Source: an uncultured Spirochaetota bacterium (lineage in GTDB: Bacteria > Spirochaetota > Spirochaetia > SZUA-6 > CAVTHK01). Taken from it: DNA of 64,000 nucleotides. The position numbers and the translations under genes were made by a program. How positions within the stretch are numbered: the first letter of the stretch is position 1; each line of letters starts with the position of its first letter. This document shows positions 7,107 through 51,830 of this stretch, piece by piece. The notes beneath the pieces are model-generated. The model did not search any database and was not told where the DNA came from. It saw only the letters and a program-made list of their open reading frames with translations. The DNA is taken from NCBI GenBank assembly GCA_963734495.1, contig CAVTHK010000011.1, positions 762,259 to 826,258 on the forward strand. Reading direction: 5' to 3'.

Positions 7107-7580
7107 ATGAGATGCCCGTACTGCCTTTTCGAGGAAACGAAGGTCATCGACTCGCGCGAAAGCTCTGACGCGATCCGCCGGCGGCGCGAATGCCTGCGCT
7201 GCGGAAGGCGGTTCACGACGTACGAGCGGGTCGAGCTTACGGGCATCTCGGTGATCAAGAAGGACGGCCGCCGGGAATCCTTCGACCGGGACAAGATCCT
7301 GGCGGGACTGCTCAAGGCGTGCGAGAAGCGGCCCATCGCGCGGGAGACGATCGAGAGGGTCGCCGACGAGATCAGCCTGGCTCTCATGCATACGGAGAGC
7401 AAGGAGGTGCCGAGCTCCGAGATCGGAAGACTGGTCATGGAGCGGCTCAAGGGCCTGGACAACGTGGCGTACATCCGGTTCGCCAGCGTCTACCGGGCCT
7501 TCGAGGACATTGCGTCGTTCGAGGCGGAGCTCGCCGAGCTCAAGCAGCGGCAGGCACTGGAAGGGGAGGGGAAACAGTGA
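7107..7580 (+). CDS. nrdR: Transcriptional repressor NrdR
   Basis: MRCPYC...VIDSR...IRRRREC..CGRRFTTYE zinc ribbon, ATP cone, VAYIRFASVY. Confidence 0.97.
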   Translation: MRCPYCLFEETKVIDSRESSDAIRRRRECLRCGRRFTTYERVELTGISVIKKDGRRESFDRDKILAGLLKACEKRPIARETIERVADEISLALMHTESKEVPSSEIGRLVMERLKGLDNVAYIRFASVYRAFEDIASFEAELAELKQRQALEGEGKQ

Positions 7581-10537: not shown

Positions 10538-11124
10538 TGGCTGTTCGCAAGGAGCGCGTCCGCTGTGCCTGGGTCGGCAGCGACCCGCTCATGATCGCCT
10601 ACCACGACAACGAATGGGGCCTGCCCCTGCACGACGACCGCCTTCTTTTCGAGTTCCTGATCCTCGACGGCGCGCAGGCCGGCCTCTCCTGGAGCACCAT
10701 CCTGCGCAAGCGCGAGGCGTACCGCCGCGCGTTCGACGGCTTCGACCCCGAGCGCGTGGCCCGCTACCGCGAGGCGCGGGTCGCGCGCCTGCTCGCGGAC
10801 GCCGGGATCGTGCGCAACCGCCTCAAGATCGAATCGGCGATCAGGAACGCGCGCGCCTTTCTCGCCGTGCGCGAGGAGCTCGGGAGCTTCGACCGCTACC
10901 TGTGGGGCTTCGTCGGCGGCAAGCCGGTGCAGAACCGCTTCGGGAAGATCGGGCAGATCCCCGCAACGAGCCCGCTCTCGGACCTCGTCTCGAAGGACCT
11001 CAAGAAGCGCGGGTTCACCTTCGTGGGCAGCACCATCGTCTATGCGTTCATGCAGGCCGCCGGCCTCGTCAACGACCACCTGGTCGGCTGCTTCCGTCAC
11101 GCCCAGGTCGCGAAGATGCGCTGA
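10537..11124 (+). CDS. tag: DNA-3-methyladenine glycosylase I
   Basis: RCAW...YHDNEWG, QAGLSW, IVRNRLKI, FMQAAGLVNDH...C. Confidence 0.95.
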   Translation: MAVRKERVRCAWVGSDPLMIAYHDNEWGLPLHDDRLLFEFLILDGAQAGLSWSTILRKREAYRRAFDGFDPERVARYREARVARLLADAGIVRNRLKIESAIRNARAFLAVREELGSFDRYLWGFVGGKPVQNRFGKIGQIPATSPLSDLVSKDLKKRGFTFVGSTIVYAFMQAAGLVNDHLVGCFRHAQVAKMR

Positions 11125-11145
11125 CAGGAGGCGGCACCCGGGAGG

Positions 11146-12814
11146 CTACACGACCCGGCGCGCCTTGAGCGTCGCGAGCAGTTTTTCGAAGCTGATGCCG
11201 TGGCGGTCCGCGATGTCCTTGGCGAAGCTGCGCCCGGCCGGGGGCCCGGGCTCGATGTGGTAGGTGCGCCGCGCCTCGCCGTTCGTGGATCCGGGCGGGG
11301 TGGACTCGGCCCCTGCGACGACGCTCACGATCGCGCACGCGCCGCCGCTCTCGCGGTTGATCTCGTCCGCCTTGGCCGCGAGCTCGTGCAGGTGCGTGGC
11401 AAAGACGGCCCGGCACCCGACCAGCCTGAAGGCGCGCAGGATGTCCTCCGCCAGGTACAGGCTCTCGCCGGGGCTCGTGCTCGAGAGCGACTCGTTGAGC
11501 AGCACCAGGCTGTGCCGCGTGACCGTCGAGAAGATGGCGGCGATGCGCGCCGCTTCTTCGCCGAGGCGGCCGGTCTCGAGGTCGCCGTGCTCCTCGCGCG
11601 GGAAATGCGTGACGATCTGGTCGACCGGGCTGATGACCGCGGCCTCCGCGGGCACGGGGAGGCCCGCCTGCGCGAGCGCCTGCGTGATCCCGATGCCCTG
11701 CGTGTACGTCGTCTTGCCGCCGCGGTTCGGCCCCGTCAGTACGAAGATGCCGGCGTCCTCATCCAGCTTCACGTCGTTGAGCACGACGCGCGACGAGAGG
11801 TCCTGGCCCGGGCTCGCCGCGCGGAAGCGGAGGGCCATGGCGAGATTGTAGTAGCCCTTGGCCCGCAACACCCGCTCCGCGGTCGGGCGCAGCTCGGGCC
11901 GCGTCAGAGGCAGCCCCGCGCCGCGGACCAGCACCCCGAGCCTGTGGCCGCCGAGGTAGAAGCCCACTTCGGGGGCCACGGCCGCGAGAAAGCCCGTGTT
12001 GAGGCGGACGTACTTCTCGACGGCGCGCACGATCGGCCGCGAGACCGACTGCAGCAGGCCGTCGAGGTCCTGGAAGAGGGGAGCCAGGGGAAGGGCGACC
12101 TGCGGCAGGGCGGCCGGTCCGCGCGGTCCGGCGTTGGCGTGCATGGGGCCGATGCCCTTGAGGCTCTCCTCGCCGCCGCGGCGCATGAGGCGCGCGAGCA
12201 GCGAGCGCTCGCCGATGCGCCGCTCGTTGATCGACAGCAGCGCCGCTTCCACCGGCCTGAGGCGCTCGTCGAGGTTGATGCCGATCGTCACGCTCGAGCG
12301 CCGCTTGATGGCGGCGCTGAGGCGGGGAAGCTCCTGCCGCAGGTTCTCGAACAGCGGGTCCTCGCGCCGCTCCTCGACGAGCCGCGACAGGGCGCGCAGG
12401 CCGGCCGATCGCACCCGGCCCGAGAGCAGCCCGGGACAGGGAGGCGATGCACTCGACGTACAGCTCCAGCTCGCCCAGCCGCCAGAGCATCTGGCGCAGC
12501 GCCGAGGTCTCGCTCCTCCTCGTCTCGGCGTAGAAGACCAGCTCCGCGATGCGCGGGACGAAGGCGGTGAGCTCCGCGGCCAGGTCGGGGGACTCGTCGA
12601 AATCGGCGAGGATGTCCTGGCGGTAGGCGATGGCCGCGGGGTCATGGCACGGCCGCTGGATCATCCCGAGGATCTGCCCGCGCGACACGTCGCTGCCCGC
12701 CATCGCGTCCGCGATCCTGTCGAGGAGCAGGTCCTCCGCGATCTGGCTGCTCATCGCGCCGGAGGCGGCTTCGGGGTCGAGGCCGGCCGGCCACAGCAGG
12801 CTGAAAGATTCCAT
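11146..12814 (-). CDS. MutS domain V-like ATPase (MutS-related protein), frameshift near 12440
   Basis: Walker A LTGPNRGGKTT, THFPREE...GRLGEE, LLNESLSSTS, FATHLHEL. N-terminus MESFSLLWP...YRQDIL is in another frame. Confidence 0.8.
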
Positions 12815-12825
12815 CGCCAGGAGCG

Positions 12826-12987
12826 AGTATACGAACCGCCTTCGCCGCGTGTCAAAACGCCCGGATATGGCGGCTGTCGCGGGCCCGGCGAGCCGCCGCC
12901 GGCCCCCCGAGCCCGGGCCGCCCGCCATCCCGGGACGTCGAGAAACCGCGCAAGTGCGTTGACGGGCTCCGGGGTGCGTGTTACTTT
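12826..12987. promoter_or_regulatory. Divergent sigma70-like promoters
   Basis: Minus strand TTGACA(12855-12850)-N18-TATACT(12831-12826). Plus strand TTGACG(12959-12964)-N17-TACTTT(12982-12987) with an extended TG. Confidence 0.55.
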
Positions 12988-13127
12988 GCAGGGAAACGTG
13001 CGGGAACCGTGCGCGCAGGAACAGGGACAACAGCCGACGCGCTTCGGGCACGGCTTGCGCATGTGGTGAGAGCCGTGTGCGGCCGCCGGAGCGCGGCCCG
13101 GCCGCGACTCGCGCCCAGGAGGGACCA

Positions 13128-13836
13128 GTGGTAAGAATCGTGACCGGAGTGACGGCCGTGCTCCTCGCGCTCGCGCTCGCCGCGTGCGCGTCGAAGCCCG
13201 CACCCGTCGAACAGCCGGCGCCCGCGCCCCAGCCGGCCCCCGCGGTGCAGCCCGCTCCGCAGCCGGCCCCCGCGCCCGCGGCCGCACCGGCCGTGGCGGC
13301 CCCCGACAAGGAGCTGGCGGGAGCGAGGATCCTTCGGGACCGGGTCGTCCGCTTCAAGCTCGACCAGCAGTATCCGCAGGATTTTGCGGCCGCCGACGCC
13401 AAGCTCATAGAGGGCCAGGCGCAGATGAACAAGGACAACGCGGCGGCCAAGGCGTCGATCGACGCCGCTTCGGCCGGCTACGGCAAGATCCTGCAAGGAC
13501 GGCCTCACTCCGATCGCCCGCAAGAACCGCCAGGACGTCGAGACGGTCCGGGCGAACGCCACGGGGATCAAGGCGCAGGTGGCCGTGGCCGACGACTACG
13601 CGGCGGCCGAAGCGGTCTACCAGAAGGCGCTGGCCAGCGACAACACGGGCGACCTGGAGGCGGCCATCGACGGGTACTCGCAGGCGCGCGATCAGTTCGT
13701 CAAGGTCTACGACTCCGCCAAGGCCAAGAAGGACCGGGCGGAGCGCTCGCTACAGGAAGCGCGCAAGGACCTCTCGGACGCCGAGGCGCAAGCCAAGGCG
13801 GCGGAGGACGCTGCGAAGGCGGAGGGCATACGATGA
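13128..13836 (+). CDS. Helical lipoprotein with Pro/Ala linker, frameshift near 13500
   Basis: AGGAGG RBS, lipobox LAAC-ASKP, PAPAPQ linker, Ala-rich amphipathic helices continuing in ORF 13579-13836. Confidence 0.7.
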
Positions 13837-14267
13837 AGGCAACTGCGATCCTTTCGCTCCTCCTGCTCGCCGTCGTGACCGCGGGCGCCCAGGACCTGCT
13901 GCGGTCGAACCCCAACTACGTCAAGGCGCGGGAGATGCAGCTGCAGGCCGACCAGGCCTACAACCGCGGCGACTACGACAAAGCCGCGCAGCTTGCCGAC
14001 GACTCGCGCAAGCTGCTCGCACAGGCGGAGAACGAGACCACGGCGCGCATCCAGCAGCTTCGCGCCAACGGGTGGAAGAACCGCGCCGCGGACCGCATCG
14101 CCTACGCCAAGGGCATCAAGGCCGACGTCTCCTACCCGGAGCAGTGGGCCAAGGCGAACGCGCTCTACGACACCGCGCAGAAGGCGTACGACGCCAAGGA
14201 CTACGACGCGAGCATAGCCGCCTCGCAGGCGTCGTACTCCGCGCTCGACGGGATAAGGCCGAAGTAG
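13833..14267 (+). CDS. Secreted helical (TPR-like) protein
   Basis: ATGA overlap with the upstream gene, signal peptide MKATAILSLLLLAVVTAGA, AYNRGDYDKA / AYDAKDYDAS repeats. Confidence 0.7.
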   Translation: MKATAILSLLLLAVVTAGAQDLLRSNPNYVKAREMQLQADQAYNRGDYDKAAQLADDSRKLLAQAENETTARIQQLRANGWKNRAADRIAYAKGIKADVSYPEQWAKANALYDTAQKAYDAKDYDASIAASQASYSALDGIRPK

Positions 14268-14294
14268 GGTCCGCTTGGAGTTGAGAACCGGCTC

Positions 14295-14391
14295 GCCCAG
14301 CTAACGCTGGGCGCCGGCTAGCGCTGGGCGAGCCCGGCTAGCGCTGGGCAAGCCCGGCTAGCGCTGGGCAAGCCCAGCTATCGCTGGGCAA
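14295..14391. repeat. Array of five ~20-bp palindromic units (GCCCRGC-TAVC-GCTGGGC-AA)
   Basis: Units start at 14295, 14313, 14332, 14352 and 14372. Each forms a 7-bp hairpin with a 4-nt loop. Confidence 0.9.
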
Positions 14392-15919
14392 GCGCCAGCA
14401 TCGTTTCCCCCACCCAGCGCACGAGCTGCTCCATCCTGCGGTAGGCGAGCTTGCCGGCTTCGTCCGTAACCTCGTGGTAGTCCTCGTGCTCGCCCGTGAA
14501 GAACGAAAGGAACGGGACGCCCGCTTCCGTGAACGGGCCGTAGTCGCTGTTGGCCGGGCTCGGCCCCGCGCCCGACCAGGTCCACTTGAGGTCGAGCGCC
14601 TCGGCCGTCGTCTCGAGCCCGGTCCGCACACGCTCGTCCACGCCCTTGCCGAACACGCGGACCGGCTGATCGGGATTGCGGCCGATCATGTCGAGGTTGA
14701 TCATGAAGCGCAGGCGGTCGCGGGGGACGAGCCCGCGGGCGAAGAGCGCTTCGGAGCCGAACAGCCCTTCCTCCTCCCCCGTGAACGTCATGAAGACCAT
14801 GCTGCGGGCGGGCCGGGGATGAACGGCGGCGAAGTACTGCGCCAGCTCGAGCACCCCCGAGGTGCCGGAGGCATTGTCGTCCGCCCCGTTGTAGATCCCG
14901 TCGCCCGGGGCGTTCGGGATCGCGCCGAGGTGATCGTGATGAGCGCCGACCACGATCCACTCGTCGGCGAGCTTCGGGTCGCTGCCGCGCAGGTACCCCG
15001 CGACGTCGCGCGCGGGCACCTCCTGCGCGGCCGCCGCCGCGGCGCCGACTCCCAGCGACGCGCTGAGGCCGCGCAGATCGACGTCGCGCGGCTTCGCGCC
15101 TCCGTCGACCGCGGCCTGCACCGACTCCGGCGTGTAGCCCGAGGGCTGCAGCAGCTTCGCCGCGAGCTCCCGCGAGATCTGCGCGGACAGCAGCGCGACG
15201 GTCTCGGCGCCTCCCGAAGGCTTCCAGGCCGGGTCCAGGCTCAGCGCGCCGTCGACGCGCAGGTCGTCGCTGCCTGACGGGTGAAAGGCGGGATCGGTGA
15301 ACAACACCATCCCCGCGGCCCCGTGCGCCAGCGCGTTGCGCGCCTTGGTCACGAAGAACGCGTGCCTGGTGAAGTCCTTGTCAGCCCACCGGCTCGCCCC
15401 GCCGTCGGTGACGGGCTCGTGGCGGAGGACGAGGACGATCTTTCCCGACACGTCGAGACCGGCGTAATCGTCCCACCCGTGCTCCGGTGCGGTGATGCCG
15501 TAGCCTGCGAACACGACCGGCGCCCGTACGCTTCCCATCCTCGAGAACCAGAACGGGCGGAAGCTCGCGCCGAGAACCGCGGGGATCTCATCGCCGCCGC
15601 GGGAAAAGGCGAGCCTGGTCTCGGCAGGGTCGTAGGTGTGCCTGTACAGGGTGAAGTCCAGAAAGAAGTCTTTCCGCCCGGGCAGCGGCTGGAGCCGGTC
15701 GCGGGCGAACTGCGAGGCGATAAAGCGCTCCGCCTGCGCCTCCCCGGGCTGACCCGTCTCGCGGCCGGCGAGCGCGTCCGAGGCGAGGTACGTCACGTCG
15801 GCGCGCAAGTCGGCCGCGGTGATCGCGGCCCCCCGATCGCAGGCGCCGAGCAGCGCCACAAGCGGGATCGCCGCGAGCGACGCGAGCCCGAGGCGCGGCG
15901 TGACCCGTCTTTCCCTCAC
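14378..15919 (-). CDS. M28 family peptidase with PA domain, lipoprotein
   Basis: Lipobox LLGAC, YLASDALAGRETG, PA insert (VFAGYGI...DY), GAHHDHLG, NGADDNASG, GEEEGLFGS, NLDMIGR, SDY, YH. Confidence 0.9.
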   Translation of the reverse strand: MRERRVTPRLGLASLAAIPLVALLGACDRGAAITAADLRADVTYLASDALAGRETGQPGEAQAERFIASQFARDRLQPLPGRKDFFLDFTLYRHTYDPAETRLAFSRGGDEIPAVLGASFRPFWFSRMGSVRAPVVFAGYGITAPEHGWDDYAGLDVSGKIVLVLRHEPVTDGGASRWADKDFTRHAFFVTKARNALAHGAAGMVLFTDPAFHPSGSDDLRVDGALSLDPAWKPSGGAETVALLSAQISRELAAKLLQPSGYTPESVQAAVDGGAKPRDVDLRGLSASLGVGAAAAAAQEVPARDVAGYLRGSDPKLADEWIVVGAHHDHLGAIPNAPGDGIYNGADDNASGTSGVLELAQYFAAVHPRPARSMVFMTFTGEEEGLFGSEALFARGLVPRDRLRFMINLDMIGRNPDQPVRVFGKGVDERVRTGLETTAEALDLKWTWSGAGPSPANSDYGPFTEAGVPFLSFFTGEHEDYHEVTDEAGKLAYRRMEQLVRWVGETMLALAQR

Positions 15920-15960
15920 GGCGCAAAGATACCCCGCGCGGCCCGGGACTGCACAGTCAT

Positions 15961-16020
15961 GCCCGGCTAAAGTCGGGCAAGCCCGGCTAACGTCGGGCAG
16001 GCCCACCTAACGGTGGGCAA
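15961..16020. repeat. Array of three 20-bp palindromic units related to the 14295-14391 array
   Basis: GCCCGGCTAAAGTCGGGCAA, GCCCGGCTAACGTCGGGCAG, GCCCACCTAACGGTGGGCAA. Confidence 0.88.
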
Positions 16021-16918
16021 GTACGTCGAGCTGGTGCACGATGAGCCCGAGCCGCGCGGCCCGGAGGTCGGCGAGGCGTGACTGCAGCCACGCGTCGAGC
16101 GAAGCGCCCGCCAGCCCCTGCCGGCCGCCCTCCGCGTGCACGGTCTCGAGGATCGCCTGCAGGAAGACCGCTTCAGAGCCGCGGTAGCGGCCGCCGAACG
16201 GGTAGAGGCTCCAGTCGGAGGCGCCGCACCCGGCGACTTCGAAGCCGCACGTCGGAAGCGCGGCGAGCAGGCGGGTCCCGGCGCGGCTTCCCCCCGTCGC
16301 GGCGCCTCCCACGCGCCGCTCGTCCATCGAGCGGTCGTAGGCCGCCAGCAGCCCTTCCTCGAACCCGCCTTCGGCCTGCGGGGGAAGGAGCGTCGTCCTG
16401 CCGTCGTAAGTGATGGTCGCGTAGAGCAGCCCCGCGGGCGCGAGGAGCCCGCGTAACCGATCGAGCGTCTCCCGCAGCGGCACGATGTCGAGAAAGGCGT
16501 GAGCCATGACCGCGTCGAAAGGCTCGGTGCCGAAACGCCTGGAATCGAAAGGATCCTGCAGGATGTCGCCCGCCGCGAACCGCACGAGCATCGAGTGCCC
16601 GAGGCCGCTCACCACCGCTCCGTCCCGACTCCTTTCGAACGCGAGCCCTCGGGCCCGCGCCTCCTGCTCGAGCAGCTCCCCGGCGACGCTCAGGCTCACG
16701 GGATCGCGGTCGAAGGCGGTGAGGTCGACGTCGCGGGGCAGCTCCTCGTTCGCCAGCTTCCGGACCATGGCGCCCGTGCCGCTTCCCACATCGAGGATGC
16801 GCAGGGGCGAGGAGGCTCGCGCGCGCAGGGCCCCGAGGAAGGCGTCGTAGACTTCGCGGTTGCGGCTGCGCGCGTCGAGCGCGATCTTCGCCTCGAGATA
16901 GACCTGAAACCCGATCAT
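16007..16918 (-). CDS. Class I SAM-dependent methyltransferase-like protein
   Basis: YLEAKIALDARS, ILDVGSGTG, HAFLD, ITYDG. ATGA overlap with the GT4 gene. Confidence 0.8.
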   Translation of the reverse strand: MIGFQVYLEAKIALDARSRNREVYDAFLGALRARASSPLRILDVGSGTGAMVRKLANEELPRDVDLTAFDRDPVSLSVAGELLEQEARARGLAFERSRDGAVVSGLGHSMLVRFAAGDILQDPFDSRRFGTEPFDAVMAHAFLDIVPLRETLDRLRGLLAPAGLLYATITYDGRTTLLPPQAEGGFEEGLLAAYDRSMDERRVGGAATGGSRAGTRLLAALPTCGFEVAGCGASDWSLYPFGGRYRGSEAVFLQAILETVHAEGGRQGLAGASLDAWLQSRLADLRAARLGLIVHQLDVLAHR

Positions 16919-17996
16919 CCGGCTCCCTTTGCGGCCACGAGCTCGCGCAGCCGCAGCGCGAAGCACTCCCCGGTCTCGGCCCACGTGGGCAGCGCCGCCG
17001 CCCGCTCCCGCGAGCGGCGCGCGGCCGCCGCCCGCAGCTCGGGACTCGCCAGCATCGCCGCTATCCCCTCGCCGAGGCCGCGGACGTCGCCGGCGGGCAC
17101 GAGGCCCTCGCCGCCGGCGGTCTCCGACACGCCGCCGACGTCGAAGGCGACGAACGGGAGGCCGAAGGAGAGAGCCTCGGCCAGGGCGATCCCGTACGCC
17201 TCGTAGCGCGACGAGAGGACGAAGAGGTCCGCATCGCGGTACGCGGCGGCGAGGGCTTCGCCGTCGAGGGGACCGGTGAGGTCGACGCGGCCGCCGAGCC
17301 CGCGGCGGCGCACCAGCCGCAGCACCCGGCGCGCGAAAGCGCGGTCGACGGTCGCGTCCCCCACCAGGCGCAGCTTCCAGTCGAGATCCGCGTGCGCGGC
17401 GAGCGCGCGCACGAGCAGGTCCTGCCCCTTGACGCGAAAGAGGTTGCCGACCGCGAGGACGACAGGCGGGCCGGCCGCGCGGGCGCGGGCCGCCCGCGGG
17501 GGAGCGACGGCATCGCGGCCGGGCGGGCAGACCGCCACCGCGACGCCGGCGTCCCGCGAGTCGAACGATCTCGCGGCGGGAGGCGCGGCTGTTGGTGACG
17601 ACGAGGTCGGAGGCGCGGAGCAGCGCCCGCTCCAGGCGAGCGGCCAGCGGACGCAGCAGCGTTCGCGGCTCCTCCCGGCTCTTGAGCATGTGGACCACGG
17701 TGACGAGCACGGGCCGCGGGCGGCGCGTCCTTGGGCGCAGCGCGAACGCGGGCGCGGCCGACGCGTGCGCCAGGCCGTCGACGATGACGGCGTCCGGGCG
17801 CCTCCGGCCCTCGAGGGCGCGGCGCAGCCTCCCGTCGAGCGCCTGCAGCGGCGCGAACGCGTAGGGCAGCCGCGGCAGCGCGAGCGTCTCGGACCGCATC
17901 GCCCCGCGCGCGCAGCGCCTCGACGATCTTGAGGTTGTAGAGGGTGCCGCCGGTGATGCGCGCGCCCGTCCGGCACGTGATCAGGAGCACGTTCAT
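16915..17996 (-). CDS. Glycosyltransferase family 4, two frameshifts
   Basis: TGGTLYN N-terminus, VDGLA, VGNLFRVKG, SRYEAYGIALAEA (ExYG...E motif). Confidence 0.85.
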
Positions 17997-18382
17997 CGGC
18001 CGCTCCACGGCTCTTCGTACGATGCCCATGCGTCGTCGCTCTCCCAGATCGTGACCTCGGAGCGGCCGATGCCGGACGCCGCGGCCCCGAGCAGCCGGCG
18101 CAGCTCGGACGTGACGAACACGGCCACGTTCTCGACGCTCGGAGCCCGCGAGGAGAAGAACGGCAGGGCGTTCAGGTCGGCCCCGTCCAGGGCGCGGCAG
18201 ACTCCACCTAGACATCTCTTGAGCTCCGAGATGTCGACCGAGTAGCCTTTCTCGTCGAGCCCGCCTGTGGCGCAGGACCACTGGATCGCGTAGTCGTGGG
18301 CGTGCGGCGACGCCTCGCTCCCGCCCTCGGCAGGCAGCGCGTGGATCGCGCGCAGGCGGTTCTTGACGCCGGCTCGGAACAT
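17993..18382 (-). CDS. 6-pyruvoyl-tetrahydropterin synthase / QueD family (COG0720) protein
   Basis: AIH...EASPHAHDY, VDI, LN.L, PSVENVA, WES. The CxxxHGH Cys of canonical QueD is absent. Confidence 0.82.
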   Translation of the reverse strand: MFRAGVKNRLRAIHALPAEGGSEASPHAHDYAIQWSCATGGLDEKGYSVDISELKRCLGGVCRALDGADLNALPFFSSRAPSVENVAVFVTSELRRLLGAAASGIGRSEVTIWESDDAWASYEEPWSGR

Positions 18383-18397
18383 CGGCCGCTCCTTTCC

Positions 18398-19385
18398 TCA
18401 CGGCTCCAGCACGACCTGCAGGGTCTCCCCGGGGCGCTCGCAGATGAGGTTGAAGGCATCCTGCGCCTTCTCGAGAGCGAAGCGATGAGTGATGTACTTC
18501 GAAGGCCGGACGCGGCGCACCATCGCCAGCGCCAGGGCGAGCCGCCGCCGCTTGTCCCATCGCGCCGAAAGGGCGGGGCTGATCGTGGAGACCTGGCTCG
18601 CCCGGATGGCGAGCCGCTTGCGGTGGAAGGCCTCGCCCAGCGCGAGGCTCACGCTGCGGCTCCCGTAGTAGGAGGCCTCGATCACGGCGGCCTCGAACGC
18701 GAGCGCGTCGATCGCGGTCTGAAGGCCTGAGCCTTCGGCGCTCGCGTTGATCGCGACGTCGAAGCCGCGGCCCTCCGTCGCTTCGGCGAGCCTCGCGGCC
18801 GCGGACGGGTCGTTGGGGTCGAGCGCGAGGCAGCCGAGCGCCTCCGAGGCGCGCCGGCGGCGCGGCGTGCGGCTCGAGGGTCACGATCCTCGCGGGCGAC
18901 GAGGCGGCCAGGATCTCGGCCACCAGCAGCCCGATGACGCCCTGGCCGACGACGAGGACCCGGTCGCCGAGGACCGGCGCCGCGTCGTGGCAGATCGCGA
19001 CGGCGGTCTCCATGCTCGCGAGGAACACGGCATCTTCGAACGGGACCTCCGGACCGAGCGCGACGGTCTCGTCCTCCCGCACGCGGAAGCGGGTCTGATG
19101 GGGGTAGAAGGCGAACACGCGGCCGCCGCCCGGCGTCAGGCCGACGTTGGTGTAGCCATAACGAAGAGGATAGCGCATCGGGCAGACGAGGGCGCTCAGG
19201 CTCGCGTCCGCGGTTCCGTTGCCCTGGAACTCGCCCCTGAAGATGAGCATCTCCGTGCCGTGGCTGATGCCGATCAGGGCGCTCGTCACCTCTATCTCGC
19301 CCGGCGCGGCGGGAGCGGGCACCTCCACGTCGCGGACCGAGACGATGCGCGGGGCGTCAAAGAAGAGCGCCCTCGCCTTACCCAT
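18398..19385 (-). CDS. Zinc-binding alcohol dehydrogenase-family (MDR) protein, frameshift near 18865
   Basis: ISHGTE, YPLRYGY, FYPHQ, META, VVGQGVIGLL, SYYG...AFHRKRL.IRASQV. Confidence 0.82.
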
Positions 19386-20052
19386 TCGCGACGGGCTCCA
19401 GGTCCCACACGACGTCCTCGCCGCGCTGCTCCAGGCGCACCGGGCGGAACCGCAGCGCTCTCGCGAGATCGTCGATGCCGAGATCCGCGACCGCGGGCAC
19501 GCCGGCGCCGATCACGAGAGGCGCCGTGACGATCAGCAGCCGGTCCACGAGCCCGGACCTCAGGAAGGCCGTGATCACGGAGCTGCCCCCCTCGACAAAG
19601 AGAGTCCCGATCCCGCGGGCGGACAGCGCCTCGAGCGCGGGCCCCAGGGCGACGCCGCCGCCCCCGCCCGGCCCCGCGGCCCGCTCGGCAGCGATCACCT
19701 CGACCCCGAGACGCCGCAGCCGCTCGACCTTCGCGGCATCGGGGGCGAGCGAAAACACGACCGTCGCGTACCGGTCCGCGCTCCGCGCGATCCGACCGTC
19801 CTCAGGCAGCCGCAGGCGCGAATCGAGGACGACGCGCACCGGCGAAGAGCAGCCGGGGAGGCGGCAGGTGAGGAGGGGGTCGTCGCGGAGGACCGTGCCG
19901 ATGCCCACGAGGATCGCATCGTTGTCCCGCCGCAATTCCTGGGCGAGCTCGAGCGTCCCGGGGCCGGAGATCCACTGCGACTGGCCGGTCCGCGTGGCAA
20001 TCCGCCCGTCGAGACTCTGCGCATAACTTACCGTGACGCGCGGCCGGCCCAT
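19378..20052 (-). CDS. RibD C-terminal (pyrimidine reductase) domain protein, no deaminase domain
   Basis: YAQSLDGRIAT, SQWISG, ILVGIGTVLRDDPLLTCR, VEGG. Confidence 0.88.
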   Translation of the reverse strand: MGRPRVTVSYAQSLDGRIATRTGQSQWISGPGTLELAQELRRDNDAILVGIGTVLRDDPLLTCRLPGCSSPVRVVLDSRLRLPEDGRIARSADRYATVVFSLAPDAAKVERLRRLGVEVIAAERAAGPGGGGGVALGPALEALSARGIGTLFVEGGSSVITAFLRSGLVDRLLIVTAPLVIGAGVPAVADLGIDDLARALRFRPVRLEQRGEDVVWDLEPVANG

Positions 20053-20110
20053 CTTACCACTATACGTACGCGGTTTGCCGGCGGGCAAGCTCGCAGGCTA
20101 TCCTTGCCTG

Positions 20111-21193
20111 ATGGGGTCGATCGCCCTGCCGAAACCGCTGCTCAAGCGCTGGCACCTCGCGCTGGCCGTCTCCATTGCGGCCTGCGCGGCTGTCGCGGCG
20201 GCCGTGAGCCCGGCACTCGGCGGCGAGGCGGTGATGCTGCGGGCGGGGCTGGTGTTCGCCGGGGCGGCCTGGCTGCTCGCGAGCTGTCGGCTGCACCTGA
20301 GGGACAACCGGGGCCCGGGAGGGGCGCTCTACGAGAGCCTCGGGCCTGCGAACCGGCTGACCCTGGCGCGCGGCCTGGCTGTGGCGGCGCTCGCGGCGTT
20401 CTATTTGACGCCGGGCCGCGGCGGTTTCGTGGACTGGCTCCCGGCCCTGCTGTACGCGGCGGTCGTCGCCGGCGACTACCTCGACGGCCTGATCGCGCGC
20501 CGTTCCGCGCGACTCACGCGGCTGGGCGAGCGCCTCGACACCGAGGTCGATGCCCTCGGCGTGCTCTTCGCTTCGGCGCTCGCGGTCTCGCGGCAGGCCC
20601 TGCCGCCGTGGTTCCTGCTGGTCGGCTTTGCCCGCTACCTGTGGGTGCTCACGCTGGCGCTGCGGCGCCGCCTGGGCGGCAGAGTCGTCTCCATATCCGG
20701 CACGGCAAGCGGCCGCTTTCTCGCGGGCGCGATGATGGGCCTCCTCACGGCCGCGCTCGCGCCCGCGGTCTCGCGGCAGCGGCTCGCGATCGCGGCCGTC
20801 GTGTTCGCCGTCCCGTTCCTGGCCGGCTTCGCGCGCGACTGGCTGCGGGCAGCGGACATCGTCCCGGAGAGCTCGTCGCTGTACCGCGGCGCGGCGCGCA
20901 TCGGGCGGCTCGTCCTGGACTGGCTGCCGCTGCCCCTGCGCGCCGCGTCAGCCGCGGCGCTGGCGGCGCTCGCGTGGGCCTCGGCCCCGCTGATGGCCGC
21001 GCCGGCGCTCGCGCTGCTGCTCGGCGCCGCGGGGCGGGCGGCCGCGCTGGCCCTGGTCCTTCTCTCCGCCCTGCGACTCATACCGCTCGACGGGGCGGCG
21101 CTGGCGGGAGTGCTGTCTCTGCTGATCCTCGGAACAGGCAGGTGGTCCGTTTGGTCGCCGGAGCGCAGGCTGTTCGCAAGAAACGCTGGCTGA
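20111..21193 (+). CDS. CDP-alcohol phosphatidyltransferase family membrane protein
   Basis: ANRLTLAR and the signature DYLDGLIARR...LGERLDTEVD. Confidence 0.88.
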   Translation: MGSIALPKPLLKRWHLALAVSIAACAAVAAAVSPALGGEAVMLRAGLVFAGAAWLLASCRLHLRDNRGPGGALYESLGPANRLTLARGLAVAALAAFYLTPGRGGFVDWLPALLYAAVVAGDYLDGLIARRSARLTRLGERLDTEVDALGVLFASALAVSRQALPPWFLLVGFARYLWVLTLALRRRLGGRVVSISGTASGRFLAGAMMGLLTAALAPAVSRQRLAIAAVVFAVPFLAGFARDWLRAADIVPESSSLYRGAARIGRLVLDWLPLPLRAASAAALAALAWASAPLMAAPALALLLGAAGRAAALALVLLSALRLIPLDGAALAGVLSLLILGTGRWSVWSPERRLFARNAG

Positions 21194-22132
21194 GCCGCCT
21201 GTTCTGGACGGCCGTGCTCGCCCTCGCCGTGCGCGTGCTCGCGAGTGTGCCCCTGCCTGCCCTGGCGGCCGTGCTGCGGGGCCTCGACCCGGCGCGTCTG
21301 GCGGCGATCCTCGCGGTTGACCTCCTTCTCGTGGCCGCCGCGCCGGTGCGCCTGTGGCTTCTCTCGCGCGGGGGCGGGACAAAGCTGCCCGTACGTTCCG
21401 CTGATCCTCTACCGCCTGGCGTCCTCGGCGGTCAATTACCTCACCCCCGGCGCGCAGGTAGGCGGCGAGCCCCTGCAGGCGATGCTGCTTTCGGCGCGCC
21501 ACGGCATGGCCGCCGCCGAGGCCGCCGGCCTTACCGTGCTCGCCCGCCTGGTGGATTCCGCGAGCGCCGCGGCGTTCTTCGGCCTCGGCGTCGCGCTTAT
21601 GGCGGCAGGCCGCGGACCTTCGGCCCTGTTGCCGCTCGCGGCTGCGCTGGCCCTGCTCGCGGCACCGTTCGCCTACGGGATCGCGCTGCGATCGGGTCGC
21701 CGGCCCGCCACCGCGGTTGCCGCGCGGCTGGCCGCCGGGCTCGCGCGCTTCGCCGCGGGCGTGCGCGATACCGAGGAGGCGCTTGCGGTCCTCTGCGCTC
21801 GGAAGCCCGCAGCCATCGCGCGGGCGCTCGCAGCCTCCGCCCTCCTGTGGGTGCCGGTCGTGCTCGAGTACAGGCTGCTGCTGGCCGCGCTCGGCCTTCA
21901 CCTCGATCTGCGCGCGTCGATCGAGGCGCTCACGCTCGCGCGCGCGGCTCTGCTCGCCCCTATCCCCGGAGCGGTCGCCGTTCTGGAGGCTGCACAGGTC
22001 GTCGGGCTGCGGCGGCTGGGCGAGTCCGCGGCGAGCGGCCTGGCCCTGGGGCTCCTGATCCGCGCGCGCGACCTGTTTTTCGTGCTGCCCGGCCTCGCGG
22101 CCGCGCGGCTGCTGCGCCCGAGGCGCCCATAG
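21142..22132 (+). CDS. Lysylphosphatidylglycerol synthase TM / flippase-like (UPF0104) protein, frameshift near 21385
   Basis: Hydrophobic, with NYLTPGAQVGGE, R.VD, PIPGAVAVLEAA and LLIR motifs. The start is uncertain. Confidence 0.75.
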
Positions 22133-22193
22133 GCGCCTGGAGCCGTGTGCGCGCGGGCTTGCCCGCGATCCGCGCCCGGCTTAATCTACATCC

Positions 22194-23308
22194 ATGGTCA
22201 CCCGCGAGATGATCCGCCAGCTGCCGAAGGTGGAGCTCCACGACCACCTCGACGGCAGCGTGAGGGCTTCCACGATCGTCGAGCTCGCGCGCGAGCAGGG
22301 CGTCGAGCTGCCCGCGCGGGACCCCGCCGCTCTCGCCGAGTGGTTCCACCGGGGCGCGGATCGCAAGAGCCTCAAGCTGTACCTCGAGGGGTTCGGCGTG
22401 ACCGTCTCCGTGATGCAGACCGAGGAGGCGTTGGAGCGCGTCGCGCGCGAGGCGATCGAGGACCTGGCGGCGGACCACGTGATGTACGCGGAGGTCCGCT
22501 TCGCCCCGATGCTGCACCTCGGCGCGCGGGCTGAACCTGGAGCGCGTCGTGCTCGCCGTGCTGCGGGGCCTCGAGGCGGGGCGCGCCGCGACCGGGCACC
22601 GACTTCGGTCTGATCCTGTCCTCGCTGCGCGACCAGCAGGTCTCGCTGGAGACCGCCGAGCTGGCCGTCGCCTTCCGCGACAAGGGGGTGGTGGCGTTCG
22701 ACCTCGCCGGCGACGAGTACGGGCACCCGCCCAAGCGCCACCTCGACGCCTTCGAGTACATCCGCAGCAAGAACTTCAACATCACGATCCACGCCGGCGA
22801 GGCGTTCGGCATGGAGAGCATCTGGCAGGCGCTGCAGATCTGCGGCGCGCACCGCATCGGGCACGCGACGCGGCTGCGCGAGGACATGGTGGTGAGCGGC
22901 ACGCGGATCGTGCAGATGGGGACGCTCGCCCAGTTCATCCTGGACAAGCGGGTGCCCATGGAGATGTGCCTGTCCTCGAACGTGCAGACCGGCGCCGCCG
23001 AGTCGCTCGACGCCCACCCGTTCCCGCTGTACTACCGGAACAACTTCCGCGTGTTCCTCTGCACGGACAACCGGCTGATGAGCGACACCACGCTGAGCCG
23101 CGAGATGGAGCTCGCGGTCAAGCACTACAACCTGACGCTCGAGGATCTCGAGAAGATCACGATCAACGCCATGAAGAGCGCGTTTGCGCACCACGACGAG
23201 CGCATCCGGATCATCTACGACGTGCTCAAGCCCCGCTTCGCGCGCATGAGGCAGGAGATCACATCGCTTGCCGTGACCGCAAGGCCAGGCTTGCTGACCG
23301 AAGATTAG
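22194..23308 (+). CDS. add: Adenosine deaminase, two frameshifts (about 22525 and 22600)
   Basis: LPKVELHDHLDG, YAEVRFAP, FDLAGDE, TIHAGE, RIGH, EMCLSSN, CTDN. Confidence 0.9.
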
Positions 23309-23579
23309 GCTCGCCTGACCGGGGAAGCCGCCGGGGGCGCCATCTCCGGCCTCCGCAACCTCCGCGCTGAGATCGTGGTCATTGGGGTCGATTTGCGGTT
23401 GCCCCGGCCGGGGCGGAGCGGGCGGGGTCGGACAGCGGGCCGCTTCTGTCTCGACAGAGTCGGCCGGCCAGTGCTATATTGGCCCGGCTTTGACTGGCAC
23501 GCCCCTCACCGTGAATTCTCAGCGGAGCCGCCGTTGCGGCCTCGAAGCATAGCCTGATCACCAACTTCCGGAGGTAACC

Positions 23580-26500
23580 ATGCCTGAGGTCGCCCAGAAA
23601 AGGACTCAGGTAGCCACCTTCCTCGACCTTTACCGATCCATGAGGACGACGCGCGCGGTGGAGGCGCTGGAGCAGGACTTTACCCGCAGGGGCGAAGCCT
23701 TCTTCTACGTCTCGTGCGCCGGCCACGAAGCGGCCGCGACGCTCGCGCCTCATCTCATCGAAGAGGACTGGCTCCAGGCCCACTACCGCGACAAGGCGCT
23801 GCTTCTGGCGCGCGGCATGAGCGTCGAGACGCTCTTTCTCGCCCTGTTCGCCAAGGACGCCTCCGAGTCCCGCGGCCGCGCCATGAACGCGATCATGAGC
23901 GACGCGGACCACCGCGTCATGGGCATGCCCGGGCGCGGTGGGCAGCGGCGGGCTGCACGCGTGCGGCGTCGCCGAGACGATCAAGGCCGACCCGGCGCGG
24001 CCGATCGTCTACTGCTCCGTCGGCGACGGCACGAGCCAGCAGGGCGAGATGCTCGAGGCGATCCTCACGTCGGCTGCGCGCGAGCTGCCGGTGCTCTGGG
24101 TCGTGCAGGACAACGGGCTCGCGATCTCCACGCGCACCAGCGGGCCGCACCTTCTTCTCGCTGCCGAGCGGGCGACCAGGACGTCTTCTGCGGCATCCCG
24201 ATCCGCCGCATCGACGGCCACGACATCATCGGCGCCTACCGCGCCTACGGCGAGATCGTCGACGAGATGCGCGAGACGCGCAAGCCCGCCATCGTGATCC
24301 TGCGCGTGGAGCGGCTGGACAGCCACAGCAACGCCGACGATCAGACCCTCTACCGCACCGCCGAGGAGATCGATGAGGTGCGCCAGACCGCCGACCCCCT
24401 CGCGCTCTTCGAGGAGAGCCTCGAGGGGCTGGGCGTCAAGCGGCAGGAGCTCGAGCGGATCAAGGCCGAGATCGCCGAGCAGGTCAAGAGCGACGCGCTG
24501 CGCGCCCAGCGCAGCGGCGGACCCCTTCGCGACGTTCCACGCCAAGAAGGAGCTGCCCCGCGATCTCGAGGACCCGCCGCCGCGAGTACCGCGGCGACGC
24601 GAGCGAGCCGAGGTTCACGATGCTCGAGGCGGTGCGCGAGCTCTTCCGCAAGCGCATGCAGCGCGACAAGCGCATCGTCATGTTCGGCGAGGACCTCGAG
24701 GACCCCAAGGGCGACGTCTTCGGCCTCACCCGCGGGCTGACCGAGGCCTATCCCGGCCGCGTGCGCAACTCGCCGCTCTCCGAGTCGACGATCATCGGCT
24801 TCTCGGTCGGCGAGGCGCTGGCCGGCCGCAGGCCGATCGCCTTCCTTCAATTCGCCGACTTCCTCCCGCTCGCCTTCAACCAGATCACCACCGAGCTCGC
24901 CACCATGTACTGGCGCACCGACGGCCGCTACCAGGCGCCGGTCATCGTGATGGCGACCACCGGCGGCTACAAGCCCGGCCTCGGGCCGTTCCACGCGAGC
25001 AGCATGGAGTCGTACGCCGTCCACACTCCCGGGCGTCGACGTGTTCGAGCCGAGCACCGCGGCCGACGCGGTCGGGCCTGCTCAACGCGGCGATGCAGTC
25101 GGGGCGGCCGACGATCTTCTTCTACCCCAAGAACCTCGCTCAACGACCGCGAGAACACGACGAGCGCCGACGTCGAGCGCCAGCTCGTTCCGATCGGCAA
25201 GGCGCGCATCGTGGAGAAGGGCGACGACATCACGCTCGTCGGCTGGGGCAACGCCGATGCCCATGTGCCGCAAGGCCGCGGCGGCCCTGCGCGGCGTCGG
25301 CTACGGCGCGGAAGTGATCGACCTGCGCAGTCTCTCGCCCTGGGACGAGCAGGCGGTGCTCGCCAGCGCCGAGCGCACCGGGCGACTCATGATCGTGCAC
25401 GAGGAGAACCTCACCTGCGGCTTCGGCGCGGAGATCGCGGCCACGGTGGCCGAAAAGGCCCGCGTCGCGGTGCTGGTCAGGCGCGTGACGCGCCCCGACA
25501 CGTTCGTCCCTTCAACTTCGCCAACCAGCTCGAGGTGCTGCCGGGCTTCAAGCGCACGCTCGAAGAAGCCGCGGCCATGCTGGGCGCGGAGGTGAGCTGG
25601 CAGGCCCCGCCCAAGGCGGAGAGCCGGCGTCTTCCTCATCGAGGCGATCGGCTCGAGCCCTTCCGACGAGTCGGTCACGGTGCTCGACTGGCAGGTCAAG
25701 GCCGGCGACAAGATCGAGGCCGGAGCGATCGTCGCCAATCTCGAGGCGGACAAGGCGGTGCAGGAGCTCTCTTCGCCCGTGCAGGGCGTGGTGGCTCGAG
25801 CTGCTCGTGCCCGCGGGCGAGATGGTCAAGGTGGGCACGCCGCTCGCGAAGATCAAGACCGCCGAAGGCGGCGATGCCGCGCTCAAGCCCGTCTCGCGCG
25901 AGGAGCCGGGCACTCCCATCATCACCAAGGGGAAGGCGCCCGCCGCCGCCCGCGGCGCGTGCCTCGGCCGTCGCCGCGGTTCCTGCCGCGGGCGAAGCGC
26001 CGGCCGCCGAATCCAGGCGGGAGACGGCGGTCGAGATCGGGCTCGCCGGCGTCGAGGTGGCGACCGGGTCGCGCAAGGTGTCCAACGACGAGATCGCGGC
26101 CAAGTGCCCCGACTGGACGGCGGGCGAGATCCTCAAGCGCGTCGGCATCGAGAGCCGCTACTGGGTGGGCGAGGGCGAGACGGTCGTGACCCTCGGCGCG
26201 AAGGCCGCGCGCAAGCTGCTCGCGGCGCAGGGGCTCACGATCCGCGACATCGACCTGCTGATCGCGACCACGGGGACGCCGCCGACCACGACGCCGTCGA
26301 CCGCGGCGCTCATCCTGCACGACCTGTCCGAGGGAGCCTCCGACATCTACGTGCAGGCGCACGACATCAACGCCGCCTGCTCGGGCTACCTCTACGGGCT
26401 GCAGGCCGCCTACGACTACCTGTACACGCGGCCCGACAGGCGCGTCGCTGCTCGTGACGACGGAGACGCTCTCGCTGCGCACCGACCCGGCCGACCCGTC

Positions 26501-26994
26501 GACGGCGCCGATCTTCGGCGACGCCGCGACCGCGACGCTGCGTCGTGACCGCCGGCGGCAAGCAGAAGCTCCGCGCGCGCCTCTGGCCCCCGGCGCTCTC
26601 GGCCAAGGGCGAGGACGGGACGATCCTGCGCGTGCCCAACCAGGACGGGAGCTTCATCTACATGGACGGGCCCAAGGTGTTCCTCGAGGCGATCAAGGGC
26701 ATGATCATGATGCTCGAGCAGGCCTGCGCCATCGCGGGCAAGACGCTCGCCGACCTGGCGCTCGTGGTCCCGCACCAGGCCAACCAGCGCATCATCAACG
26801 CCGTGGCCATGAAGCTCAAGGCGCCGAAGGGGCTGCTCTACAGCAACATCCGGGAGTACGGCAACACCTCTTCGAGCACGATCCCGATCTGCCTGGCGAA
26901 GCTGCTCGGCGAGCGCAAGAGCGGCGAGCTGCTCGGGCTCACCGCCTTCGGCGGCGGGTTCACGTTCGGCGGGGCGGTCATCCAGATCGTGTAG
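23580..26994 (+). CDS. Fused 2-oxoacid dehydrogenase E1alpha-E1beta-lipoyl domain-beta-ketoacyl-ACP synthase III (about 1130 aa, many frameshifts)
   Basis: E1alpha: AGHEA, HYRD, GDGTSQQGE...QDN, SHSNADD. E1beta: GEDLEDPKGDVFG, NSPLSESTI, IDLRSLSPWD. Lipoyl: LEADKAVQELSSPVQG. FabH: DINAACSG, PHQAN, GNTSSST, FGGGFT. Confidence 0.8.
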
Positions 26995-27050
26995 TCGCGC
27001 AGACCGGGGCGGCGCCGGCTCCGCGGGCGGCGCCGCCTTCGCACTCCAGG

Positions 27051-27497
27051 TCAGTTGCCCGGCGAGTATCGCACGTTGCCGGTGTAGCTCACCATCCACC
27101 CGATCCCGAATTTGTCGACGCACATGCCGTACTTTTCGGCCCACTGCGTCTTCTGCAGCGGCATCTCGGGCTTCCCGCCCGCCGAGAGGCCTTTGAACAC
27201 CCTTTCCGCTTCGGTCTCGTTGTCAGCCTCGAGGGCGATATAGAAGTTGTTCCCGGCCTTGACGGGGCGCTTCTGGGACTCGAGGATATCCGATCCCATG
27301 AGGATGTTGCCGTTGCCGATGGGCAGGGCGACGTGCATGATCTTGTCCAGCTCTTTGGCCGGGACCTTCATCGCCTCGCCGCCGGAGTCCTTGAATGTGA
27401 TCAGGGCGTTGAACTCCCCGCCGAACACGGACTTATAGAACGTGAAGGCCTCCCGGGTGTTCCCGTGGAAATTGAGGTACGGGTTCGCTACCTTCAT
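27051..27497 (-). CDS. VOC/PhnB family protein
   Basis: NPYLNFHGN..EAF.FY..VFGG, IMH, MGSD, MPLQKT.W...YGM..DKFGI.W. Confidence 0.9.
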   Translation of the reverse strand: MKVANPYLNFHGNTREAFTFYKSVFGGEFNALITFKDSGGEAMKVPAKELDKIMHVALPIGNGNILMGSDILESQKRPVKAGNNFYIALEADNETEAERVFKGLSAGGKPEMPLQKTQWAEKYGMCVDKFGIGWMVSYTGNVRYSPGN

Positions 27498-27645
27498 GGC
27501 TGCTCTCCTCGTGCGGATGTCTGCGGCGCCCCTGGGCCGCCCGAGGCGGCGCGCCACCGTCGTCCGGCTCCGCGGGCGCCAGCCAAAAAGATAACTCCGG
27601 CGGTCAGGTTAGGCTACAAGAAGTCGTAAGGGCGCACGGGGGCGA

Positions 27646-28176
27646 CTACCCGCGCGGCGACACTTCCCACGCCCTGAGGTTCTCGCTGCTCCACTTGAGC
27701 GACAGCGGGGGAAGCTCCACGGCGTGGAACTCCGGGCCGATGGCCCTCCGGACCGGGTCGGTGACCTTGATGCCCGGCAGACGGTTGAGCACGGCCGCGT
27801 GCGCCACGGTCTCGCCCATCACGTCGTCGACCCTGAGAGACTTGTGGCCGAAGATGCCGCGAGTGACCTCGCCGCTGCTGACAGCGGCGCCCAACTCGGC
27901 CACCTGCACGATCTCGTAGCTCTCGACAAGCGCCGCGAAGTCCTTGCGCATCCGCACGGCGCATCGGACGGCTTCGTTTTCCCTGCCGCGCGGAAACACG
28001 CAGAGCATCGCGTCGCCGATGTACTTCAGGATCGAGCCGCCGTTGTCCACGACGGCGGTGCCGGCCTTCTCGTAGAACTTCTGGACAAAGGCGGGCATCC
28101 GCTTCCCCAGCGCGACGCTCAGGCGCATGAAGCCCCTGATGTCGCAGAAGAGAACGACGAGGGACACTTTCTTCAT
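27646..28176 (-). CDS. Stand-alone class III adenylate/guanylate cyclase-like domain
   Basis: LFCDIRGF, GG.ILKYIGDAML, GEV..G..G, VMGETV. Confidence 0.8.
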   Translation of the reverse strand: MKKVSLVVLFCDIRGFMRLSVALGKRMPAFVQKFYEKAGTAVVDNGGSILKYIGDAMLCVFPRGRENEAVRCAVRMRKDFAALVESYEIVQVAELGAAVSSGEVTRGIFGHKSLRVDDVMGETVAHAAVLNRLPGIKVTDPVRRAIGPEFHAVELPPLSLKWSSENLRAWEVSPRG

Positions 28177-51738: not shown

Positions 51739-51830
51739 CGCGGAACCCGAAGCGGTCGCGGCTGGGGGCATTCGATAGCGGAGAGCTCGCTGCCCGACCA
51801 CAGACTGCCCGCGGCATCTGAGGAGGAACG

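Follow-up and report, generated by a model that had tools for sequence, protein, structure and literature searches.

We analyzed a 64-kb stretch of DNA (the window; positions 762259 to 826258 of contig C11 in genome G000, with a G+C content of about 70%) that carries, at 23580-26994 of its forward strand, a gene in which the E1alpha and E1beta parts of a 2-oxoacid dehydrogenase (E1), a lipoyl domain and a FabH-type condensing domain follow one another. A first-pass annotation, made from the letters alone, had joined these parts into one reading path of about 1130 residues through about 15 single-base shifts, and had placed FabH where the catalytic core of the acyltransferase component (E2) would normally be found. 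Our study finds that the whole E1-lipoyl-FabH architecture is encoded by one gene. Its elements are listed below with their positions in the window; the domain E-values are those obtained on the intact ortholog of a sister species, which is described in the next paragraph.

23451-23480, forward strand: sigma-70-like promoter TCGACA-18-TATATT with a TG before the -10 element, 10 of 12 positions matching
23580-26994, forward strand: whole fused gene E1alpha-E1beta-lipoyl-FabH, about 1130 amino acids (aa), 15 shifts read through, with a ribosome-binding site at 23571-23575
23631-24522, forward strand: E1alpha part, E1_dh (PF00676, 8.3e-43), with the thiamine diphosphate (TPP) motif GDG...N at 24022-24030 and 24112
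24617-25534, forward strand: E1beta part, Transket_pyr (PF02779, 8e-26) and Transketolase_C (PF02780, 2.9e-32)
25671-25854, forward strand: lipoyl domain (PF00364, 1e-15), with the lipoyl-lysine codon of the motif EADKA at 25752
25879-25926, forward strand: conserved post-lipoyl motif SLKPxTREEPGTPVI, without a Pfam match
25939-26026, forward strand: Ala/Pro-rich flexible linker (ortholog residues 786-807, with a predicted local distance difference test score, pLDDT, below 50)
26036-26988, forward strand: FabH-type 3-ketoacyl-acyl carrier protein synthase III (KAS III) domain (PF08545 and PF08541)

In the open reading frame (ORF) lists made with translation table 11, the stretch 23580-26994 is broken into pieces over all three forward frames. 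To obtain the ortholog used to read through it, we searched 41 related genomes for the N-terminal piece of FabH and found one strong relative outside G000, at 79% identity over that piece, in a sister species of the same genus (protein P0001 of genome G001, L013:9108-12494, minus strand). There the frame is uninterrupted over 1145 aa, runs for 1126 aa from its ATG, has GGAGG upstream and contains all six Pfam domains of the architecture. A frameshift-aware alignment of window positions 23560-27010 against this protein gave a single path from 23574 to 26991, with exactly 15 one-base shifts (14 insertions and one deletion), no in-frame stop codon and 941 of 1113 residues identical (84.5%). The gene starts with an ATG at 23580, preceded by GGAGG at 23571-23575, and its stop codon ends at 26994. 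The only promoter-like site between 23200 and 27300 is the one at 23451-23480 (shuffled sequences contain 0.2 on average), and none was found within the gene; some 100 nt ahead of the start codon, the two species share this promoter and the block TGCTATATTGGC without any difference (approximately 12585-12625 of L013 in the sister species). A search of the 5' region (23200-23650) against Rfam gave no match at E <= 1. The path, the number of shifts and the single gene described in the first-pass annotation were thus reproduced exactly. Its remark that no ribosome-binding site or ATG is evident before the FabH part fits the lack of a promoter-like site within the gene, and with the shifts corrected no stop codon separates one domain from the next.

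The 15 shifts are most likely assembly errors, and not gene decay, because short-read contigs carry a compensating indel at eight of the 15 sites (23928, 24516, 25028, 25074, 25506, 25794, 26447 and 26541). These contigs were taken from the public runs X1 and X2 (DNA) and X10 (an RNA library) and aligned to the region at a likeness of at least 90%; seven of the corrections leave out one base and one puts in a C, all of them in the predicted direction. It is important to consider that the contigs represent related strains, 90-99% alike, and that they show an intact frame in nature rather than in the reads of this sample. The other seven sites (24139, 24167, 24574, 25138, 25256, 25625 and 25948) are spanned by none of the 32 contig pieces listed (175 further pieces lie outside that list). 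At 23934, 24512, 25073 and 25796, part of the short-read depth is without the indel. We see a very small chance that the window copy is a decaying pseudogene with real shifts, which would concern this copy only and would be compatible with each of the readings of the enzyme weighed below. Decay would fit the seven sites without contigs, the four places of mixed depth and the density of shifts, which is 15 in 3.4 kb (4.4/kb) for the fused gene versus 3 in 4.96 kb (0.6/kb) for four neighboring orthologous genes within 11100-23350 (two in the 1124 nt of adenosine deaminase, one in the 1714 nt of another gene, and none in two genes of 1461 and 660 nt). However, the independent contigs that correct eight sites include those of an RNA library, the promoter and the ribosome-binding site are conserved, and 17 of the 18 shifts in the fused gene and its neighbors are +1 insertions: 14 of the 15 in the fused gene, mostly in short G/C runs, and all three in the neighbors. 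The identity of the fused gene to its ortholog also equals that of the neighboring adenosine deaminase (315 of 372 residues). Because the path has no stops, the divergence is normal and the errors are of one type, assembly error is far likelier than decay.

On the ortholog, Pfam identified six domains: E1_dh at residues 20-315 (146.9 bits), Transket_pyr at 347-521 (91.2) and Transketolase_C at 539-651 (111.6), these three above their cut-offs, Biotin_lipoyl (PF00364) at 697-757 (57.7), ACP_syn_III at 919-983 (67.8) and ACP_syn_III_C at 1043-1127 (79). Pfam found in this protein neither the E2 core 2-oxoacid_dh (PF00198) nor E3_binding (PF02817; E <= 0.01). An alignment of 32 members of the family, whose mean column identity is 57%, allowed us to follow the functional residues across it. 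In all 32 the TPP motif residues G150 and G152, followed after about 27 residues by N180, are invariant, as are the five residues of the lipoyl motif (E721, A722, D723, K724 and A725), the Cys-His-Asn triad of KAS III (C925, H1056 and N1086) and R1061 of the motif HQANQRI, the equivalent of Arg249 of Escherichia coli FabH, which we take to be a residue that docks the acyl carrier protein (ACP). The window copy retains the GDG and N180 of the TPP motif, the lipoyl lysine and the triad, with the Cys at 26378, the His at 26773 and the Asn at 26863, and its ACP-docking Arg maps to 26788. The domain order and the intact triad reported by the first-pass annotation are in agreement with these assignments.

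Between the lipoyl domain and the linker, the post-lipoyl motif (ortholog residues 766-781) has four residues, K768, E773, G776 and P778, that are likewise invariant in the 32 members; a role in docking dihydrolipoamide dehydrogenase (E3) or the body of the enzyme is possible. An AlphaFold2 model of the ortholog, built on the 32-row alignment, reached a mean pLDDT of 81.8 and a predicted template modeling score (pTM) of 0.63. It shows ordered domains, disorder at residues 764-768 and 786-807, and a short strand (777-781) inside the post-lipoyl motif. The predicted complex of the lipoyl domain (683-765) with a dimer of the FabH domain (800-1128) received a score of 0.02 and a mark of 0.32, and was used neither for nor against any reading.

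The closest solved chains to the condensing domain are bona fide FabHs, namely 2ebd (6e-44), 4ryb, 4nhd, 1zow, 1hn9 and others, and the four best of them possess both Trp32 and Arg151. In the description of the nucleotide site given for E. coli FabH-CoA structures, the adenine of coenzyme A (CoA) is stacked between these two residues and hydrogen-bonded to Thr28 (PMC4606726). None of the 32 fused FabH domains has a Trp at position 32, which is occupied by Asp in 26, Glu in four, Lys in one and Gly in one, and none has an Arg at position 151, where we found Pro in 24, Tyr in three, Lys in two, and Ser, Phe or Val in the others; the Thr28 position is an invariant Trp, and GDGAGA is replaced by GDAATA. 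In the window copy, the equivalents of Trp32 and Arg151 are Glu (26126) and Pro (26496). The comparison set of 27 stand-alone FabHs, made up of 10 from the order of the window, nine nearest relatives in other phyla and eight from carriers of the fused gene (G000 and G001 included), preserves Trp32 in 27, Arg151 in 26 and Thr28 in 26. The fused domains group in a single clade (SH-aLRT support 100%), set apart from ordinary FabHs by a long stem of 1.27-1.6 changes per column. Judged by these residues, the CoA-adenine clamp has disappeared from the clade of fused FabHs, in which the triad and the ACP-docking Arg persist.

The window gene is one more member of a large uncharacterized family. A database search with residues 660-1128, in which protein length was limited to 620-1974 aa, yielded 1311 matches among 8000 scored, and 115 of the best 120 relatives listed combine E1_dh, Transket_pyr, Transketolase_C, a lipoyl domain and ACP_syn_III; the remaining five, without E1_dh, measure 628-773 aa, and three of them are labelled partial. 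The architecture named by the first-pass annotation is thus carried in one protein by most of the relatives listed. When each species was represented by a single genome, a relative was encoded in 594 of 600 pattern stretches; 79 loci were kept, and in 61 of these, from at least six phyla, the match extends from E1 to FabH, with 43-56% identity. The carriers belong to Spirochaetota, Sumerlaeota, Planctomycetota, Kiritimatiellota (Pontiella and Tichowtungia), Verrucomicrobiota, Actinomycetota and Pseudomonadota, the last with cultured representatives (Rhizobium sp. ICMP 5592, P40RR-XXII and BK602, and Cysteiniphilum litorale DSM 101832). Their distribution is scattered: within the order of the window, two genomes out of 41 carry the gene, both from its genus, and so do four of the 201 genomes sampled from the phylum of genome G041. 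Names in the databases are generic ("beta-ketoacyl-ACP synthase 3", "transketolase", "2-oxoisovalerate dehydrogenase E1 component"), and this annotation conceals the fused architecture. The first-pass annotation knew of no biochemical characterization, and our full-text literature search, whose coverage leaves out subscription journals, likewise found no study of the E1-lipoyl-FabH architecture.

Clustering of all flanking ORFs at 47 loci found no conserved partner gene. The largest flanking cluster, an ABC ATPase, is present at 10 of the 47 loci, about 2-9 kb away, and what else recurs is synteny confined to particular lineages (aconitase among spirochaetes, a PtsP-like gene among Kiritimatiellales, and MsrB). 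Since no partner is conserved, the fused gene appears to work with housekeeping partners only. In G000, the E2 core (PF00198) has matches on C13, C16 and C7, each adjoining an E1; there are three E1-E2 loci, two of them with an E3. The E3-type domain (PF02852) has matches on C16, C13, C11:42934 and C1. All of these lie outside the window, so that the earlier statement that it contains neither an E2 core nor an E3 gene holds for this genome-wide search of PF00198 and PF02852. G000 also has three matches to the lipoate/biotin ligase family and a stand-alone FabH on C1. At 3711-5771 of the reverse strand, the window has an ORF of 686 aa for a Pyr_redox_2 flavoprotein, which is not an E3, the genome search for Pyr_redox_dim giving no match in the window.

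Our study also identified a second lineage in which the same parts follow in the same order. At locus L075 (Spirochaetales; 9977-13504), a gene for a fused E1alpha-beta protein of 659 aa is followed after 13 nt by a gene for a 511-aa protein that contains Biotin_lipoyl, E3_binding (28.7 bits, with a cut-off of 23.7) and both FabH domains, and that is an E2 in every respect save for FabH as its core. This layout agrees with the earlier proposal that FabH occupies the place of the E2 core. At least 53 clusters of the split form were found, 22 of them with a precomputed E3_binding match; Salinispira pacifica and Spirochaeta lutea are among them. The second lineage also has a fused E1-lipoyl-FabH member at L082 (1-2988), from a Planctomycetaceae metagenome-assembled genome (MAG), where the stretch from E1beta to the lipoyl domain is partly masked (X) and the 5' end lies off the contig. 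This lineage is about 28-30% identical to the window's family. Its FabH domains form a clade with 99% support and, in 10 of 10 sampled, have Tyr at position 32, Ile at the Thr28 position, Val at the Arg36 position and a preserved Arg151. In a quick tree, a weak branch alone separates the two lineages of lipoyl-linked FabHs, and the approximately unbiased (AU) test did not reject a single clade for all of them (p 0.557; the constrained tree was better by 2.65 log-likelihood units). Given the weak branch and this AU value, we do not claim independent origins of the two lineages, nor do we claim a single origin; a single origin with a later fusion of E1 is possible. Locus L086, considered as a candidate E1-lipoyl protein without FabH, was rejected, as it is an ordinary E1alpha/E1beta/E2 operon.

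Regarding the substrate, the best solved relatives of the E1 part are the chains of the Thermus thermophilus 2-oxo acid dehydrogenase (1um9_B for beta, 4.3e-62, and 1um9_A for alpha, 2.8e-31), followed by the E1 components of pyruvate dehydrogenase (PDH) and of branched-chain 2-oxoacid dehydrogenase (BCKD or BKD). Even-numbered iso fatty acids start from an isobutyryl primer, which is the product of 2-oxoisovalerate. MAGs of Pontiella carry the fused gene. In the fatty-acid data given for this genus, i-C12:0, i-C14:0 and i-C18:0 are listed as major acids (PMC7356697), a link that is a correlation only, and Pontiella genomes also contain E2 genes. For Cysteiniphilum, a literature search on anteiso acids had no result. 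The substrate is probably a branched-chain 2-oxoacid such as 2-oxoisovalerate, with pyruvate as the alternative.

Because one gene joins a keto-acid decarboxylase, a lipoyl arm and a chain-starting FabH, a CoA-independent chain start is probable, and priming of FabH directly by the lipoyl arm, from a 2-oxoacid and without acyl-CoA, is in our opinion the best reading of the sequences and the one towards which we lean. In the proposed cycle, E1alpha-beta with TPP would decarboxylate the 2-oxoacid, and E1 would reductively acylate the lipoyl-lysine of its own lipoyl domain. The acyl-dihydrolipoyl arm, carried on a flexible linker of about 20 residues, would then enter the FabH tunnel and acylate the active-site Cys925 with no acyl-CoA involved, after which malonyl-ACP would dock and condensation would yield 3-oxoacyl-ACP for type II fatty-acid or related lipid synthesis. 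The reduced lipoyl arm would be re-oxidized by E3, which would be required for turnover and would be encoded elsewhere in the genome. In this scheme the one-gene architecture, its conservation, the catalytic residues and the lost clamp are seen in the sequences, and it is the direct transfer, the substrate, the ACP-bound product and the use of E3 that we infer. The protein would accordingly be classed, with somewhat better than even confidence on our part, as an initiation enzyme complete in itself, with its E2 acyltransferase core replaced by a condensing domain of the FabH type. We give equal weight for and against a broader proposal, in which an unrecognized way of starting chains that bypasses acyl-CoA would go back to an ancestor with the order lipoyl-E3-binding-FabH; in the fused branch, E1 would have been attached, the binding domain dropped and the CoA-nucleotide site remodeled for lipoyl-lysine.

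Several results weigh against direct priming or leave room for other explanations. The shift density in the fused gene is about seven times that of its neighbors, and the listed contigs bear on eight of the 15 sites. The scores of the FabH part stay under the NCBIfam thresholds for FabH (PRK09352, 241.2 versus 249; TIGR00747, 203.7 versus 292.1). No NCBIfam E1 equivalog exceeds its cut-off either (PRK11892, 218.5 versus 454; TIGR03181, 170.6 versus 411), and because every such model stays below its threshold the substrate class is unassigned; moreover, we know of no branched fatty acids in the Rhizobium carriers. The main family has no E3-binding domain for the re-oxidation of its arm, and the clamp is not missing from every lipoyl-linked FabH, since the second lineage keeps Arg151 and has Tyr32. 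As for gene content, the E2 core was matched at least once in each of the 12 carriers tested, and all seven tested for it have a stand-alone FabH; therefore, gene content does not force a route free of E2 or of CoA. The first-pass annotation had expected carriers to lack a stand-alone fabH, which was contradicted in all seven. Its companion expectation, the loss of a BKD-type E2, was borne out in the two cultured carriers, among the 12, whose E2 genes were typed, and failed in that all 12 keep some E2. The two are Rhizobium sp. (G043) and Cysteiniphilum litorale (G044), each with exactly two E2 genes, assigned above NCBIfam cut-offs to the E2 of 2-oxoglutarate dehydrogenase (OGDH) and the E2 of PDH. 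Because their two E2s are of these types, the fused enzyme in both organisms would be without an E2 of its own.

Two alternatives to direct priming were considered. The gene could be a Rosetta-stone fusion, in which the acyl group passes to a separate cellular E2, is released as acyl-CoA and is then taken up by the fused FabH, the fusion serving co-regulation or co-localization only. The E2 cores of the 12 carriers and the three E1-E2 loci of G000, two of them with E3, are what such a route would need; however, the lipoyl domain sits on the E1-FabH protein and not on an E2, the CoA-adenine residues are gone in all 32 members, the E2s of two cultured carriers are limited to those of OGDH and PDH, and the conserved neighbors at 47 loci include no E2, so that we regard this explanation as distinctly improbable. 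A different possibility, which we consider unlikely, is that the FabH-like domain is a transacylase only, with dihydrolipoamide as the acyl donor, holo-ACP or CoA as the acceptor and no condensation step, for a specialized lipid or metabolite. KAS III-like enzymes that carry out acyl transfer alone do exist, and the location of the domain at the exact place of the E2 core, behind lipoyl and E3_binding in the split form, would suit this function, as would its scores below the FabH cut-offs and its long stem branch. The residue set of decarboxylative condensation, Cys-His-Asn, is nevertheless invariant in 32 of 32 members together with the ACP-docking Arg, and the loss of the clamp argues against CoA as the acceptor.

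The architecture can be compared with several known systems. In Bacillus, Staphylococcus and Listeria, the branched-chain 2-oxoacid dehydrogenase complex (E1alpha2beta2/E2/E3) supplies FabH by way of acyl-CoA. The fused protein resembles this pairing in having a TPP-dependent E1 that would acylate a lipoyl-lysine and a Cys-His-Asn KAS III that is predicted to condense the primer with malonyl-ACP; unlike it, the fused protein is one polypeptide without an E2 core, an E3-binding domain or a CoA-adenine clamp, and presumably skips the acyl-CoA intermediate. With E2 proteins it shares the DKA lipoyl lysine, an Ala/Pro linker and a catalytic domain that would accept the acyl group, to which the split relatives add E3_binding, whereas its core is a thiolase-fold KAS III instead of the chloramphenicol-acetyltransferase-like 2-oxoacid_dh and, in the window's family, E1beta and the lipoyl domain share one chain, from which the binding domain is missing. 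It is like FabH and other KAS III enzymes in its ACP_syn_III and ACP_syn_III_C domains, its Cys-His-Asn triad and its HQANxRI motif with the ACP-docking Arg, and differs from them in the Trp, Asp/Glu and Pro found for T28, W32 and R151, in GDAATA for GDGAGA, in its scores below the NCBIfam cut-offs and in its separate clade with full support. The second lineage, comprising the split form of L075, Salinispira pacifica, Spirochaeta lutea and other Spirochaetota together with the fused L082, shares the parts and their order; the split form differs from the window's family in its two genes, its retained E3-binding domain and the Tyr32, Arg151, Ile (T28) and Val (R36) noted above. Lastly, in the biosynthesis of quinocarcin and naphthyridinomycin a carrier protein reportedly receives a two-carbon unit by way of TPP and a lipoyl group. 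There, too, an E1-like enzyme and a lipoyl arm are said to supply the acyl unit to an assembly line instead of CoA; that system is described as keeping an E2-type transferase and loading an ACP, with no ketosynthase fused to the arm.

None of the neighbors of the fused gene in the window is tied to lipid or 2-oxoacid metabolism. They are the following.

21245-22132, upstream: LPG_synthase_TM protein
22194-23308, upstream: adenosine deaminase, broken into two ORFs by two +1 shifts (22521 and 22594) relative to the sister species
27051-27557, downstream, opposite strand: glyoxalase/PhnB-like protein
27646-28176, downstream, opposite strand: nucleotide cyclase domain protein, followed by an ABC ATPase

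Farther away in the window, an intact anaerobic ribonucleotide reductase gene (NRDD and ATP-cone) is located at 7190-9778 of the forward strand, and hints at a facultatively or strictly anaerobic organism. A DUF6600 protein of 657 aa is encoded at 58273-60246 of the reverse strand. An ATG-started ORF of 1152 aa without a Pfam match at 1e-5 occupies 51728-55186 of the reverse strand, over the same stretch as an ORF of 1082 aa on the other strand; either of the two, or neither, may be the real frame.

The hypothesis of direct priming is directly testable in cultured carriers, which include Rhizobium spp. and Cysteiniphilum litorale for the fused form and Salinispira pacifica and Spirochaeta lutea for the split form. 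If it is true, the enzyme would provide a compact one-gene part for the engineering of branched-chain lipids, and lipoamide would be an acyl donor to a ketosynthase, a link between the 2-oxoacid dehydrogenases and type II fatty-acid synthesis that is not found in textbooks. The carriers would have an additional route of initiation beside FabH with acyl-CoA, malonyl-ACP decarboxylase and initiation of the FabB/FabY type, and through it the catabolism of branched-chain amino acids (or of pyruvate) would be coupled to membrane lipids with the CoA pool left untouched.

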